DNA of 13,428 nt from a virus (taxonomy: Duplodnaviria; Heunggongvirae; Uroviricota; Caudoviricetes), in IMG/VR virus record IMGVR_UViG_2579778791_000027. One strand, 5' to 3'. The notes beneath the pieces were generated by a model, which saw only the letters and a list, made by a program, of their open reading frames with translations, had not been told where the DNA came from and ran no database searches. Below are positions 4,347 through 13,428 of the stretch, piece by piece; positions within the stretch are counted from its first letter, which is position 1, and each line of letters starts with the position of its first letter. A program made the position numbers and the translations under genes.

Positions 4347-4391
4347 AATTTTAAGCCATCAGCAGGACGCACTGACCACCATTGAAGGTGA

Positions 4392-4422
4392 GGCTCTTAA
4401 AAATTAAGCCCTGAAGAAGGGC
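4392..4422 (+). promoter_or_regulatory. nutL (boxA plus boxB hairpin)
   Basis: boxA-like GGCTCTTAA at 4392-4400 and boxB GCCCTGAAGAAGGGC at 4408-4422, upstream of N. Confidence 0.8.
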
Positions 4423-4579
4423 AGCATTCAAAGCAGAAGGCTTTGGTGTGTGTGATACGAAACGAAGCATTGGCCGGAAGTGCGAATCCGGATTAGCTGC
4501 CAATGTGCCATTGCGGGGTGTTTTCGTTCAGGACTACGACTCCCACACACAACCAAAGCTAACTGACAGGAGAATCCAG

Positions 4580-4903
4580 ATGGATGCACAAACACGCCGC
4601 CGCGAACGTCGCGCAGAGAAACAGGCTCAATGGAAAGCAGCAAATCCCCTGTTGGTTGGGGTAAGCGCTAAACCAGTTAACCGCCCTATTCTCTCGCTGA
4701 ATCGCAAACCGAAATCACGAGTAGAAAGCGCACTGAATCCGATAGACCTTACGGTGCTGGCTGAATACCACGAACAGATTGAAAGCAACCTGCAACGTAT
4801 TGAGCGCAAGAATCATCGAGTTTGGTATAGCAAGCCAGGTGAGTTCGGTATAACTTGTCAAGGAAGACAAAAGGTTAAAGGGGAATCCATTCCATTGGCA
4901 TGA
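4580..4903 (+). CDS. N: Antitermination protein N
   Basis: Translation from the ATG at 4580 gives MDAQTRRRERRAEKQAQWKAANPLLVGVSAKPVNRPILSLNRKPKSRVESALNPIDLTVLAEYH... (107 aa), recognised as lambda N with an arginine-rich N-terminus. The 151-aa track ORF is an upstream extension through nutL. Confidence 0.93.
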   Translation: MDAQTRRRERRAEKQAQWKAANPLLVGVSAKPVNRPILSLNRKPKSRVESALNPIDLTVLAEYHEQIESNLQRIERKNHRVWYSKPGEFGITCQGRQKVKGESIPLA

Positions 4904-4911
4904 GGTACGTA

Positions 4912-5781
4912 ATGAAGAAGATTGATTACAAGTCCATACCAAAACCAATAGACTCAGCATCAGAGCGAAAAAAACACAAAAAAGAGGCTGAAAAATTAGC
5001 AAATTATATCAGTTTTATTAGAAACAATGCTCACGGCGATGGCGACAAGAAGTTGCTTTCAGATGCTCGGACCCAAGCGTTCGGTATACTTCGTAAGCAG
5101 ATGCAATATCGTCTTCATCCTGGCTACATAATTGAAATTCGCCCTACTGAAAGACAATTGTTCTTATTAAACTCTGTCTTTGACTTTGTAAACGTAGTTG
5201 GAGATCTTATCGACAGGTCTGTAGATAAGGATCCTGATACAAATAGTTTTCTTCTAACAAATAAAGAATACTTATATGGTAAATTCGGTATAAACGGATG
5301 GCAAAAATATGTACGCTTCTTACGTGCATTCGTTGATGCGTATAAAAATTCCGACATGATTTATACATATTTGCCTGGTGGTGATAATTGTACGCTTTCG
5401 GCAGACAATAGAATATTCATACCTGTACTTGGTCTTGGGCTGATTAATGCAGTAAATGAAAAAGATGTTATAATTGTTAAGCAGTGGCGAAAATATGAGG
5501 GATATAGATATCTGCCATGCTTTGATATATTAAAAATACAGAATAAATTCTATGTAAAAATTAAATATAAAGAAGATATTTTCTTCCTCAGAAAAAACAT
5601 AGATCTTTTACAAGAACTTTCTGGTACAATAGATGTCATCTTAGGTTCTAGGTTTATAAAAGAACTGAAAGAAAGCAGGTCTTTCTCTCGTGTAGAGATA
5701 AGCGAGTCAGAGTTATGGGGTATATCAAATAATCCTGTAAACCACGCTCACCAACGAAACCCAAACAAAAAGTGGTCATAA
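4912..5781 (+). CDS. Hypothetical protein of unknown function (~289 aa, AT-rich), in the slot lambda uses for ral/sieB; candidate accessory or exclusion gene
   Basis: Uninterrupted ORF. ATG at 4912 has a GAGG RBS 6 nt upstream; an alternative ATG at 4900 overlaps the N stop. Composition is visibly A/T-rich, unlike flanking lambda genes. I do not recognise the protein; no Walker A motif or transmembrane segment seen by eye. Confidence 0.7.
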   Translation: MKKIDYKSIPKPIDSASERKKHKKEAEKLANYISFIRNNAHGDGDKKLLSDARTQAFGILRKQMQYRLHPGYIIEIRPTERQLFLLNSVFDFVNVVGDLIDRSVDKDPDTNSFLLTNKEYLYGKFGINGWQKYVRFLRAFVDAYKNSDMIYTYLPGGDNCTLSADNRIFIPVLGLGLINAVNEKDVIIVKQWRKYEGYRYLPCFDILKIQNKFYVKIKYKEDIFFLRKNIDLLQELSGTIDVILGSRFIKELKESRSFSRVEISESELWGISNNPVNHAHQRNPNKKWS

Positions 5782-5923
5782 CCCGCTCAGGCGGATTTCA
5801 TTTTCACGCAAACAACAGAATAAACACAGCGCTGTGTATTCATTCCAACGAGTGAATACACGGAGCAATGTCGCTCGTAACTAAACAGGAGCCGACTTGT
5901 TCTGATTATTGGAAATCTTCTTT

Positions 5924-5950
5924 GCCCTCCAAGATGAGGGCGATTTTTTA
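5924..5950 (+). terminator. Intrinsic terminator-like hairpin between the unknown ORF and ea10
   Basis: gccctc-caagat-gagggc followed by gaTTTTTTAt. Confidence 0.55.
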
Positions 5951-5969
5951 TCTGTGAGGATATGAACAG

Positions 5970-6338
5970 ATGTCAAACATCAAAAAATACATCATTGATT
6001 ACGACTGGAAAGCATCAATAGAAATTGAAATCGACCATGACGTAATGACAGAGGAAAAACTTCACCAGATTAATAATTTCTGGTCAGACTCTGAATACCG
6101 ACTCAATAAACACGGCTCTGTATTAAATGCTGTATTAATCATGCTGGCGCAACATGCTCTGCTTATAGCAATTTCAAGCGACTTAAATGCATATGGTGTT
6201 GTGTGTGAGTTCGACTGGAATGATGGAAATGGTCAGGAAGGATGGCCTCCAATGGATGGTAGTGAAGGAATAAGAATTACCGATATCGATACATCAGGAA
6301 TATTTGATTCAGATGATATGACTATCAAGGCCGCCTGA
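5970..6338 (+). CDS. ea10: Ea10 protein (lambda early-left; Ssb-like)
   Basis: 122-aa ORF, same length as lambda Ea10 and with the same 72-bp spacing to cIII as in lambda; the sequence matches my recollection of Ea10. Confidence 0.8.
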   Translation: MSNIKKYIIDYDWKASIEIEIDHDVMTEEKLHQINNFWSDSEYRLNKHGSVLNAVLIMLAQHALLIAISSDLNAYGVVCEFDWNDGNGQEGWPPMDGSEGIRITDIDTSGIFDSDDMTIKAA

Positions 6339-6410
6339 GCGCGGCGTTACCGCATACCAATTACGCTTCACTCGAGGCGTTTTTCGTTATGTATAAATAA
6401 GGAGCACACC

Positions 6411-6575
6411 ATGCAATATGCCATTGCAGGGTGGCCTGTTGCTGGCTGCCCTTCCGAATCTTTACTTGAACGAATCACCCGTAAATTACGTGACGGATGG
6501 AAACGCCTTATCGACATACTTAATCAGCCAGGAGTCCCAAAAAATGGATCAAACAATTATGGCTATCCAGACTAA
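6411..6575 (+). CDS. cIII: CIII protein (FtsH inhibitor protecting CII)
   Basis: ATG at 6411 with a GGAG RBS; translation [54 protein letters not shown] (54 aa) recognised as lambda CIII. Below the track threshold, found by manual translation. Confidence 0.92.
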   Translation: MQYAIAGWPVAGCPSESLLERITRKLRDGWKRLIDILNQPGVPKNGSNNYGYPD

Positions 6576-9691: not shown

Positions 9692-10294
9692 TCATTCAGT
9701 ATCATCACGCGCGGTCTGTGCATATGTTACTACCGCACCTAATGTATTAATTTTCTTTTCAACATAGATAATATTATCGTACTCATAATTGCCATACGGA
9801 TAGCAAATGCGAATATTCTCATGTAGATCGGGGTCATCCACCTCAGCTCCAGAACAACTTTTTGAACTACCGGAAGTATACCGATACGGTGCAACATAAG
9901 ACGATGTCTCTCCAGGCAAAAAATAAGTTAGTGTTGTAAGGGGTATAATCAGAAAAAATCCAGCAAATATGCACATCCCTGCATAAACCTTAAGGTATGC
10001 TGACAGACTCTTCCAGCCGCTTTGTTTTACTATCCCCTTCTTAACCCAAAACAGAGATAACAGAAAAGCTATTCCCATGCTAAACAGAATGTAATAGTGG
10101 GATATACTCTGATTAAGAAACGTGACCCTGTAAATATCTGCCCGCCACCAGAAGAAAAGGAAAATAAAGATCAGGCCTGAAACTGTCATGCAAATCAAAT
10201 AAGGATACGAATCTTTTTTCATGTTTAGCGTCCATAAAATTTTTCCTGCCCCGGACAAATTTACCATCCATTTTTTGCGCAGAAAATAGCTCAT
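9692..10294 (-). CDS. Hypothetical integral membrane protein (multiple predicted TM helices plus a ~70-aa C-terminal soluble region), AT-rich, opposite in orientation to the early-left operon
   Basis: 200-aa ORF. Hydrophobic stretches YLICMTVSGLIFIFLFFWW, YYILFSMGIAFLLSLFWV and AGMCIFAGFFLIIPLTTLTYFL. Three in-frame ATGs (10294, 10267, 10222), none with a strong SD, so the start is uncertain. Not recognised as a lambda protein. Confidence 0.6.
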   Translation of the reverse strand: MSYFLRKKWMVNLSGAGKILWTLNMKKDSYPYLICMTVSGLIFIFLFFWWRADIYRVTFLNQSISHYYILFSMGIAFLLSLFWVKKGIVKQSGWKSLSAYLKVYAGMCIFAGFFLIIPLTTLTYFLPGETSSYVAPYRYTSGSSKSCSGAEVDDPDLHENIRICYPYGNYEYDNIIYVEKKINTLGAVVTYAQTARDDTE

Positions 10295-10536
10295 TACTTA
10301 CTGCACAATAATACACAAAATTGCGTAAATTTTTTGCATGGATTTTAGCTCTTTCAGCCGACGTTTAAGGGGTAAATAGCATTTCCTAAAAGCAACTGCA
10401 CCAACCCAACAGAATGAGCTACCGCTTACGTTGAGAGCAAAAAAGTGTATAGCAGCAATGAACAGCATCCTCGCACTGACGAGGATTTCTTTTATCTGAA
10501 CTCGCTACGGCGGGTTTTGTTTTATGGAGATGATAA

Positions 10537-12144: not shown

Positions 12145-13428
12145 GTGAACACATTTTCAGTTTCCCGTCTGGCGCTGGCATTGGCTTTTGGCGTGACGCT
12201 GACCGCCTGTAGCTCAACACCACCCGATCAACGTCCTTCTGATCAAACCGCGCCTGGTACCTCTTCTCGCCCGATTCTGTCGGCAAAAGAAGCGCAGAAT
12301 TTCGATGCTCAACACTATTTTGCATCCCTGACACCAGGTGCTGCAGCGTGGAATCCTTCCCCGATTACCCTGCCTGCGCAACCTGACTTTGTTGTCGGCC
12401 CGGCGGGTACTCAAGGTGTAACGCATACCACGATTCAGGCGGCGGTAGATGCGGCAATTATCAAGCGCACTAACAAGCGCCAGTATATTGCCGTGATGCC
12501 TGGTGAGTATCAGGGAACGGTGTATGTCCCTGCTGCTCCGGGTGGAATTACTCTGTACGGTACAGGTGAAAAACCGATTGATGTGAAGATTGGGCTTTCC
12601 CTTGATGGGGGCATGAGCCCTGCCGACTGGCGTCACGACGTCAACCCGCGCGGCAAATATATGCCAGGTAAACCAGCGTGGTATATGTACGATAGCTGCC
12701 AGAGCAAACGCAGCGACAGTATCGGTGTTCTCTGCTCTGCGGTCTTCTGGTCACAAAACAATGGCCTGCAACTGCAAAATCTGACCATCGAAAACACGCT
12801 GGGCGATAGCGTAGATGCAGGTAACCATCCGGCGGTGGCACTGCGTACTGATGGTGACCAGGTACAGATTAACAACGTTAACATTCTCGGTCGTCAGAAC
12901 ACCTTCTTTGTCACCAACAGCGGTGTGCAGAACCGTCTGGAAACCAACCGTCAGCCGCGTACGCTGGTGACCAACAGCTACATTGAAGGGGATGTGGATA
13001 TCGTTTCTGGTCGCGGCGCAGTGGTGTTCGATAACACCGAATTCCGCGTGGTGAACTCACGTACTCAGCAAGAAGCGTATGTGTTTGCACCGGCTACGCT
13101 GTCCAACATTTACTACGGTTTCCTCGCCGTAAACAGCCGTTTCAATGCTTTCGGTGATGGTGTGGCGCAACTGGGCCGCTCGCTGGATGTTGATGCCAAT
13201 ACCAACGGTCAGGTGGTGATCCGTGATAGCGCCATCAACGAAGGTTTTAACACGGCTAAACCGTGGGCCGATGCGGTGATCTCTAATCGTCCGTTTGCGG
13301 GTAATACCGGCAGCGTAGATGATAACGACGAAATACAGCGCAATCTGAATGACACTAACTACAACCGCATGTGGGAATACAATAACCGCGGCGTGGGTAG
13401 TAAAGTGGTTGCAGAGGCGAAGAAGTAA
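12145..13428 (+). CDS. ybhC: Host outer-membrane lipoprotein YbhC (pectinesterase-fold protein, putative acyl-CoA thioesterase), complete
   Basis: 427-aa ORF with a lipoprotein signal peptide and lipobox (LALAFGVTLTAC); GTG start with a GGAG RBS; different codon style from the phage. Sequence and position next to att-lambda match E. coli ybhC. Confidence 0.88.
   Translation: MNTFSVSRLALALAFGVTLTACSSTPPDQRPSDQTAPGTSSRPILSAKEAQNFDAQHYFASLTPGAAAWNPSPITLPAQPDFVVGPAGTQGVTHTTIQAAVDAAIIKRTNKRQYIAVMPGEYQGTVYVPAAPGGITLYGTGEKPIDVKIGLSLDGGMSPADWRHDVNPRGKYMPGKPAWYMYDSCQSKRSDSIGVLCSAVFWSQNNGLQLQNLTIENTLGDSVDAGNHPAVALRTDGDQVQINNVNILGRQNTFFVTNSGVQNRLETNRQPRTLVTNSYIEGDVDIVSGRGAVVFDNTEFRVVNSRTQQEAYVFAPATLSNIYYGFLAVNSRFNAFGDGVAQLGRSLDVDANTNGQVVIRDSAINEGFNTAKPWADAVISNRPFAGNTGSVDDNDEIQRNLNDTNYNRMWEYNNRGVGSKVVAEAKK

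Follow-up and report, generated by a model that had tools for sequence, protein, structure and literature searches.

A Nun-type C-terminal tail on a predicted TnpB/Cas12-like core: a candidate transcription-arrest factor in the pL operon of phage 434

What does a lambdoid phage encode between N and ea10 when the sieB and ral genes that λ keeps there are replaced? The question is raised by a 13,428-nucleotide (nt) stretch of DNA (IMG/VR virus record IMGVR_UViG_2579778791_000027; hereafter, the window), where one A/T-rich open reading frame (ORF) fills this interval. A sequence-only reading of the window had described the ORF as unrecognised and had proposed for it a prophage-encoded exclusion, abortive-infection or anti-restriction function. 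Here, we find that its product, a protein of 289 amino acids (aa), ends in the RNA polymerase arrest peptide of HK022 Nun, and that this tail is attached to a core with the predicted fold of the WED-REC lobe of TnpB/Cas12. We favour, with a little less than even confidence, the view that the protein is a two-module transcription-arrest factor for phage/host conflict.

Results

The candidate protein ends in a Nun-type tail under purifying selection

Performing blastn searches, we find that the window is a phage-434-type prophage, which is 99.6% identical to phage 434 (OL657226) over 10.4 kb. The ORF in question corresponds to a gene already on record.

4912-5781, + strand: candidate coding sequence, 289 aa plus stop; the same as phage 434 CPT_434_48 (UMO75312.1; RefSeq WP_001299183.1)
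5737-5778, + strand: Nun-type RNA polymerase arrest tail VNHAHQRNPNKKWS, residues 276-289, identified by a PHROG 5632 match, alignment, codon analysis and low predicted local distance difference test (pLDDT) scores
5736-5951, + strand: stretch matching the 3′ end of HK022 nun and its downstream DNA at 94.6-94.7% identity (blastn, HK022 annotation)

Thus, the ORF had been recognised in part. The depositors of phage 434 had already labelled CPT_434_48 in GenBank as a "Nun C-terminal peptide-containing protein", while RefSeq and all other sources call it a "hypothetical protein". The genome announcement of phage 434 does not discuss CPT_434_48, and we found no functional study of the protein. The candidate protein has no match in Pfam, NCBIfam or PADLOC, and its only full-length family match is PHROG 12139, of "unknown function". 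By tblastn, only 2 of 50,697 phage records match it, namely phage 434 and 434B. The λ imm434 hybrid, on which most 434 work was done, lacks the gene and carries λ sieB/ral in its place, which is plausibly why the candidate was never studied.

HK022 Nun arrests the E. coli RNA polymerase and excludes its target phage, and it is suppressed by the rpoC mutations R322H, D264G and D329G. Only residues 87-109 of Nun are ordered in the cryo-electron microscopy structure, and this segment holds all known arrest determinants. Aligning the two proteins, we find that residues 276-289 of the candidate are identical to Nun 96-109; the last 20 residues match the C-terminus of the Nun family PHROG 5632 (E 5e-5). 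A disordered linker of about 17 residues (259-275) precedes the tail. Across six family members that share 38-68% identity, V276, N277, H278, A279, H280, R282, K286, K287 and W288 are invariant. The residues N277, H278, H280, R282, K286, K287 and W288 are equivalent to Nun N97, H98, H100, R102, K106, K107 and W108, which contact the β′ rudder, the RNA/DNA hybrid, the DNA and a β′ pocket (PMC5386594). Nun N103 is dispensable (PMC5386594), and the equivalent position varies across the 290-aa family.

The codons of the tail were compared pairwise in eight genes, the six family members and two nun genes. At the nine conserved positions, we counted 119 synonymous and 0 nonsynonymous differences. 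Since these positions are invariant and their codons have changed only synonymously, the tail is ancient in the 290-aa family and has been kept by purifying selection.

The DNA around the tail is mosaic. The segment 5736-5848 matches the final 15 codons of nun and 67 nt downstream at 94.7% identity, and the segment 5840-5951 resumes the match past the IS903 insertion of HK022. As the match begins at 5736, the junction coincides with the first tail codon (5737). A junction at exactly this codon is what recombination predicts, and one could argue that recombination with a nun-carrying phage grafted an idle tail onto an unrelated moron ORF, making the gene a functionless by-product. We consider this very improbable. 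Relatives at 38-68% identity bear the tail with diverged codons and no nonsynonymous change at the functional positions, which makes the tail old and selected, and a later exchange within shared sequence explains the 434/HK022 identity better. We read this identity as a recent exchange within a shared module and not as the event by which the scaffold acquired its tail, because the tail codons of the diverged relatives have themselves diverged.

The likeness to HK022 Nun comprises the identical last 14 residues, a disordered linker, a pL operon gene at or beside the N slot, and shared 3′ and downstream DNA. The two proteins otherwise differ. Nun is 109 aa long and largely disordered, whereas the candidate is 289 aa long and has a folded core; nun replaces N in HK022, whereas the candidate follows N in 434. 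Unlike Nun, the candidate lacks the arginine-rich boxB motif and the H93/R94 pair, and therefore the full three-histidine zinc motif. An N-terminal arginine-rich boxB-binding motif is absent, since the basic character of residues 16-29 (SERKKHKKEAEKLA) is only mild and three relatives (P0003, P0004 and P0006) do not conserve this stretch. Residues 16-31 (SERKKHKKEAEKLANY), in which an aromatic residue takes the place of N W18, were considered as an N/Nun-like arginine-rich motif and rejected, as they are unconserved in the same relatives and form part of a packed hairpin in the structural model.

The predicted core resembles the WED-REC lobe of TnpB/Cas12

What does the tail sit on? An AlphaFold2 (AF2) model was built on a 29-sequence alignment; an earlier 4-sequence alignment had given an unusable model (pLDDT 42.6). 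The final model has a pLDDT of 83 and a predicted template modelling score (pTM) of 0.78, with residues 11-248 ordered and residues 250-282 below a pLDDT of 50. Its secondary structure runs from a helical hairpin (16-65) through a strand (72-77), helices (80-145) and six strands plus one helix (152-217) to a long helix (223-258).

4957-5106, + strand: N-terminal helical hairpin, residues 16-65 (helices 16-38 and 43-65, pLDDT 86-97), moderately basic at its start; found in the lambdoid branch only and missing in the distant branch
5125-5562, + strand: predicted TnpB/Cas12-like WED-REC core, residues 72-217 (strand 1, helical bundle, six strands), followed by no RuvC or zinc-finger domain
5578-5685, + strand: long C-terminal helix of the AF2 model, residues 223-258, in the place where RuvC begins in TnpB
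5671-5700, + strand: conserved motif E-S-R-S-F-S-R-V-E-I, residues 254-263, in a low-confidence region; common to the branch in bacteriophage exclusion (BREX) and other defence loci (S-x-x-Y-x-R-x-D-F)

The top Foldseek match of the model is ISDra2 TnpB (E 0.036, probability 0.97), and a BFVD search returned TnpB-like "transposases" of mimivirus and klosneuvirus at the top. With TnpB/Cas12 proteins (Cas12n, Cas12f, Fanzor), the model shares a strand, a helical bundle and a β-barrel, and an in-register strand-1/helix-1 motif (x-h-x-L-x-P-x-x-x-Q) is common to both. By its predicted fold, the core is a WED-REC-like lobe, and shared ancestry with TnpB is likely, though unproven. Comparing profiles by hhalign, we find that the match to ISDra2 TnpB covers only 26 residues (the strand-1/helix-1 motif, in register) and is not significant (E 0.025). 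A sequence-profile search of the PDB gave no match, and Pfam gave none for the candidate or its relatives.

The model departs from TnpB/Cas12 in what follows the core. The RuvC nuclease domain with its D-E-D triad is absent, and only the helix 223-258 and the disordered tail come after the core. The zinc-finger/target-nucleic-acid-binding (TNB) domain is also absent; the protein has two cysteines (C160 and C203) and no CxxC. Thus, the candidate differs from TnpB/Cas12 in having no RuvC, no zinc-finger/TNB domain, no evident guide RNA and no significant sequence similarity, and in carrying a C-terminal effector peptide instead.

The TnpB/Cas12 fold raises the idea of an RNA-guided repressor of the TldR or dead-Cas12 kind, in which the core and a guide RNA would block transcription at complementary sites. 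A structured RNA region does lie nearby. The 191 nt between the candidate and ea10 (5779-5969) fold far better than shuffled sequences (−64 kcal/mol, z −6), and besides the terminator they hold a perfect 14-bp hairpin (5835-5862). However, this structured region is λ backbone from 5810 on and occurs in phages without the gene. Rfam gives only the cIII thermoregulator in the window and nothing in the loci of the relatives. The homologues embedded in BREX loci are flanked by spacers of only 22 and 34 nt. Also missing are the lobes that hold most of the omega RNA (RuvC and zinc-finger), and the protein ends 72 residues past the core. We find an RNA-guided repressor hard to credit on this evidence. 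The likeness to TldR and the dead type V effectors would instead be that of a TnpB-derived scaffold apparently exapted to block transcription and not to cut DNA. TldR retains an omega RNA as well as an inactivated RuvC lobe and acts as a promoter roadblock, whereas the candidate lacks the whole RuvC lobe, and its arrest would come through a peptide inserted into the RNA polymerase.

The gene sits in the immediate-early pL operon, directly after N

Following cI434 and hex, the + strand carries oL/pL, nutL, N, the candidate, a hairpin, ea10, cIII, kil, gam, bet, exo, xis and int, in this order. The features next to the candidate are as follows.

4407-4423, + strand: nutL boxB hairpin of the λ type, GCCCTGAAGAAGGGC; phage 434 annotates nutL at the matching position, and a terminator/hairpin scan also predicts the hairpin
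4580-4903, + strand: N antiterminator of the λ type, 107 aa, by translation and annotation; directly upstream of the candidate
4894-5809, no strand: non-λ substitution segment, 916 bp, 35.5% GC, bounded by blastn against λ and the λ annotation
5922-5951, + strand: intrinsic terminator-like hairpin with a T-run, the first downstream of pL, N and the candidate, in backbone common to λ
5970-6338, + strand: ea10 (DUF2528), the downstream flank, by ORF call and annotation

The N region (4357-4893) is 92.4% identical to λ in DNA (blastn). The λ homology ends at 4893 and returns at 5810, and the λ stretch replaced is 983 bp long and contains sieB, orf28 and ral. The ORF call spans 4900-5781 (+), and the candidate begins 8 nt after N. 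Of its two possible starts, ATG 4912 is likelier than ATG 4900, which overlaps the stop codon of N as ATGA. A GAGG at 4902-4905 lies 6 nt upstream of ATG 4912, and phage 434 is annotated with this start. From ATG 4912, the N-terminus MKKIDYKSIPKP matches that of a relative (P0003, MRKINYRSLPKP), and the N-termini of the relatives are consistent with it. At 34.6% GC (30% at third codon positions), the candidate is poorer in GC than the window as a whole (46.2%), N (48.8%) and gam-exo (52%). It is not a chance ORF: of 5426 complete E. coli genomes, 83 carry it intact, it shares 38-68% identity with its homologues, and its predicted fold is confident.

We predicted no + strand terminator between pL and 5922, and hence none between N and the candidate. 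For this reason, the candidate should lie on the N-independent immediate-early pL transcript; the absence of a terminator and the 8-nt gap suggest its co-transcription with N. Several claims of the sequence-only reading are thus borne out. The A/T-rich ORF exists, it is part of a foreign replacement of the sieB/ral module (orf28 being replaced too), a hairpin-terminator follows it, and its transcription from pL directly after N agrees with the gap and the terminator prediction.

In the pL operon, the N-ea10 interval, which sieB and ral occupy in λ, is a hot spot where conflict genes collect. The genes themselves are not alike, as sieB encodes a membrane exclusion protein and ral a small anti-restriction protein, and neither is related to the candidate in sequence or fold. 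Searching for homology to sieB/ral, we found no Pfam, PHROG or NCBIfam match and no λ DNA homology across 4894-5809.

Among lambdoid phages, genes of the candidate family lie 1-8 nt after N genes of three arginine-rich-motif types: λ-like, P22-like and another (the window and contigs L005, L106, L133 and L090). In two further contigs (L016 and L082), the cro-cI-pL-leader region is 75% identical to that of HK022 and there is no N gene; there, the candidate homologue is the first pL gene, i.e., it occupies the HK022 nun slot. In the L005 series, N is followed by a 290-aa gene (P0031) and then by a 102-aa nun-like ORF. This uncalled ORF (L005 9037-9345, +), directly after P0031, has an arginine-rich motif (KGRRRALRMQQRRD) and a Nun tail (VVNHAHQRRPNKKWS).

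Does this strict adjacency mean that the protein regulates its own phage? Linked to N, it could act as a brake on pL (or pR) transcription, limiting or timing it through arrest at defined sites of the phage's own genome. The constant place of the gene beside N or in the nun slot of divergent phages and its translational-coupling geometry with N would suit such a brake, and a WED-REC core could read a DNA motif. However, the gene occurs with three unrelated N types and also without N, so a specific partnership with N is unlikely. Nun, the sole studied carrier of the tail, plays no role in the growth of its own phage, and homologues in BREX and defence loci misfit a phage-regulatory role. We regard self-regulation as improbable.

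The same position could serve a shut-off of host transcription, whereby an immediate-early product would arrest ordinary host elongation complexes while complexes modified by N (or by put, as in HK022) would resist it. The gap of 8 nt after N and the first terminator at 5922-5951 accord with early expression, and no arginine-rich motif would direct the protein to nut. A processive antitermination system, either N or an HK022-like putL region, lies beside the gene in every carrier phage. At high concentration, Nun itself arrests non-nut complexes (Kd ~300 nM). Against these points, no such shut-off is known among lambdoid phages, and the gene is dispensable, being missing from λ and λ imm434. 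The conserved folded core also suggests specific recognition over general inhibition. On balance, we think host shut-off unlikely.

Distant relatives of the core occur in BREX and other defence loci

An exhaustive HMMER search of 1.84 billion representatives gave only 24 matches. The close branch of relatives retains the Nun tail. The distant branch (213-326 aa) aligns to residues 73-274 of the candidate (hhalign 99.4%, E 9.4e-22), a match that includes the conserved motif S-x-x-[YF]-x-R-V-[DE]; these proteins end in G-x-x-V-x-GGLPSLGKRR and not in the Nun tail.

One distant clade (P0027, P0029, P0032 and P0033) lies between brxC and pglX in BREX loci, with gaps of 22 and 34 nt. Its neighbours match BrxA, BrxB, BrxC and PglX in PADLOC (E 1e-73 to 0), and a divergent WYL regulator is nearby. 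Another relative (P0028) stands beside RelA/SpoT, PLD, DUF1998 and helicase genes in a DISARM-like island. The candidate and 8 relatives gave no PADLOC match, none of the BREX models in PADLOC-DB 2.0 (2023) included. Set against type 1 BREX loci (brxA-brxB-brxC-pglX and so on), the distant core homologues sit inside one lineage and bear the GGLPSLGKRR tail, whereas the window is a lambdoid prophage without BREX genes. The contexts of P0053, P0058 and P0011 are short and uninformative.

Two side observations concern these loci. The BREX loci with a homologue in L010 (12329-16867) and L006 (12257-16831) also carry, after pglX, genes for a 376-aa, a 423-aa and an HSP70-like 610-aa protein and a second MmeI-type methyltransferase; the 376-aa, 423-aa and HSP70-like genes have no PADLOC match and may form an embedded undescribed system. 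After P0053, more than 1.1 kb without called genes (L159 8790-10398) contains GC-rich dispersed repeats of 24-77 nt, at spacings of ~365 and 1215 nt, with no Rfam match.

Could the phage protein be a copy of a BREX-associated protein that serves as a decoy or inhibitor, i.e., an anti-defence protein and functional substitute for ral? In favour, a protein with a fixed place between brxC and pglX is a homologue of its core, ral holds the same interval in λ, and immediate-early expression is typical of anti-defence genes. But its identity to the BREX clade is only ~20%, other distant members lie outside BREX, and there is no link through PADLOC or any other family. The selectively conserved Nun tail would also go unexplained. 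We regard this alternative as improbable, and the anti-restriction function that had been suggested for the ORF is left with these circumstantial points (the ral locus, the BREX clade and the early timing). Nothing was found that points to an abortive-infection function.

Two C-terminal tails recur on different proteins

To find other carriers of the tail, viral and genome collections were scanned with a degenerate DNA pattern for V-N-H-A-H-x-R-x3-K-K-W. The pattern matches at least 120 viral contigs and 6 genomes (Providencia, Proteus, Photorhabdus, Shimwellia, Escherichia and an Oxalobacter metagenome-assembled genome), with ~0.3 chance matches expected in the genome collection from the degeneracy of the pattern. 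All 64 distinct tail-bearing ORFs fall into only two architectures, small proteins of 79-123 aa and the ~290-aa family. The small carriers bear very different arginine-rich heads, and in some 88-aa carriers the head is almost that of λ N (MDAQARRREKRKEKQEEWK...). This distribution fits a portable effector peptide that is paired with different targeting modules.

Viral contigs L047, L050, L061, L062, L101 and L040 encode 88-aa ORFs with a near-λ-N start (MDAQARRREKRKEKQEEWKRQNP...) and a Nun tail at the end, which look like natural N/Nun hybrids. In L040, two tail-bearing ORFs stand in tandem after a short N-like gene.

The second tail, GGLPSLGKRR, also ends unrelated small viral ORFs, so both tails behave as portable C-terminal peptides. 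The ORFs in question (L144, L146, L147, L149 and L151) are 54-114 aa long and end in SGGLPSLGKRR-COOH, and two of them have Zn-ribbon-like CxxC motifs. Among the papers searched, none joins "Nun" and "TnpB" or contains either tail peptide.

Other features of the window

The host gene ybhC adjoins the prophage (12145-13428, +; NCBIfam PRK10531, E 3e-220); we take ybhC to be the neighbour of the λ attachment site. The cIII thermoregulator (Rfam Lambda_thermo, 6398-6456, +) is intact at 88.5 bits. Between a TraR/DksA-like gene and xis (9692-10468, −), two A/T-rich (~38% GC) leftward ORFs of 200 and 56 aa resemble a second moron. Phage 434 labels them "putative membrane protein", and the 200-aa ORF has no NCBIfam match. 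An otherwise identical prophage of E. coli 2015C-3163 carries an IS3-family element between kil and gam (L002 8333-9546) that is absent from the window.

Discussion

A candidate mechanism of targeted arrest

The TnpB/Cas12 WED-REC module reads duplex DNA at the target- or protospacer-adjacent motif (TAM/PAM) and contacts RNA. A recognition fold of this kind combined with a Nun tail makes the candidate, therefore, probably a targeted transcription-blocking weapon. In the two-module arrest factor that we favour, the first module would comprise residues ~72-217 with the flanking helices, a WED-REC lobe without the nuclease domain. The second would be the Nun tail, residues 276-289, held on its linker of ~17 disordered residues. 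The HK022 Nun peptide threads between the β′ rudder, the RNA/DNA hybrid and the downstream DNA and blocks translocation, and Nun residues 44-86 stay near the upstream fork and the RNA exit.

By analogy, certain elongation complexes would present, close to their upstream fork or RNA exit, a partner or a specific nucleic-acid feature on which the core of the candidate would dock, and the body of the protein may stay there as Nun 44-86 does. The core would thereby substitute for the arginine-rich motif of Nun as the targeting device, and it could read either the upstream duplex DNA or the nascent RNA. Docking would raise the local concentration of the tail, which would then wedge into the RNA polymerase and cause arrest, as Nun does after boxB binding. 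Expressed with N from the pL operon, such a protein may act in conflict with competing phages or elements (exclusion or defence), and possibly in host shut-off.

Several points weigh against this proposal. Its functional claims are drawn from sequence and a predicted structure. The TnpB link in particular rests on the predicted structure, as sequence profiles stay short of significance and Pfam gives no match. Nun H93 and R94 have no equivalent in the candidate (N273 and N274), and the third histidine of the Nun zinc motif is missing, so the affinity for RNA polymerase may be low. In Nun, H93 stacks on DNA and R94 is needed for binding, which R94A strongly weakens (PMC5386594). The position varies in the 290-aa family (NNP, NSP, GQA, DKA, VSI), and the small Nun-like proteins keep an aromatic residue or histidine plus a basic residue there. 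The phage carries a λ-type N and nut and depends on the host RNA polymerase; thus, an unregulated arrest factor would harm it. Of the distant branch, only one clade lies in BREX, and others are solitary or plasmid-borne (P0023 is solitary, and P0035 is near trfA). Finally, the pL operon to which the gene belongs is repressed, and promoter prediction gave none that would serve expression in the lysogen, which leaves "exclusion by prophage" unsupported.

The conflict or exclusion role first proposed for the ORF has therefore fared unevenly. The purifying selection on its Nun-type tail and the distant homologues in BREX and defence islands speak for conflict, but the "prophage-encoded" part is unproven, and the position is that of an immediate-early lytic gene.

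Implications for Nun, TnpB and phage conflict

GenBank already records the Nun peptide of the candidate. What seems to be new is that the core resembles TnpB, that its relatives in BREX loci and defence islands bear another portable tail, that the mosaic junction is exact, and that tail shuffling is general. More tentatively than the arrest mechanism itself, we suggest as a possibility that the 434 protein is the lambdoid member of an undescribed class of conflict effectors. These would be TnpB-derived WED-REC modules without RuvC that deliver interchangeable C-terminal peptides (the Nun tail or GGLPSLGKRR) in phages (beside N in pL operons) and in bacterial defence loci, where they would include an extra, hitherto unrecognised component of some BREX systems.

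A nuclease-less recognition lobe of TnpB/Cas12 would be a new exaptation of the TnpB lineage. The relatives of the scaffold in BREX operons are a lead to an accessory protein with a conserved C-terminal docking peptide. Nun, the textbook wedge of RNA polymerase, has so far been regarded as a singular case bound to boxB RNA, but a founding model phage carries its peptide on a completely different folded scaffold. Together with the presence of the peptide on dozens of arginine-rich heads, this would make targeted polymerase arrest modular and probably a widespread strategy in conflict between phages. If the proposed class exists, Nun itself would be a single example among many of a targeting module joined to a portable arrest peptide.

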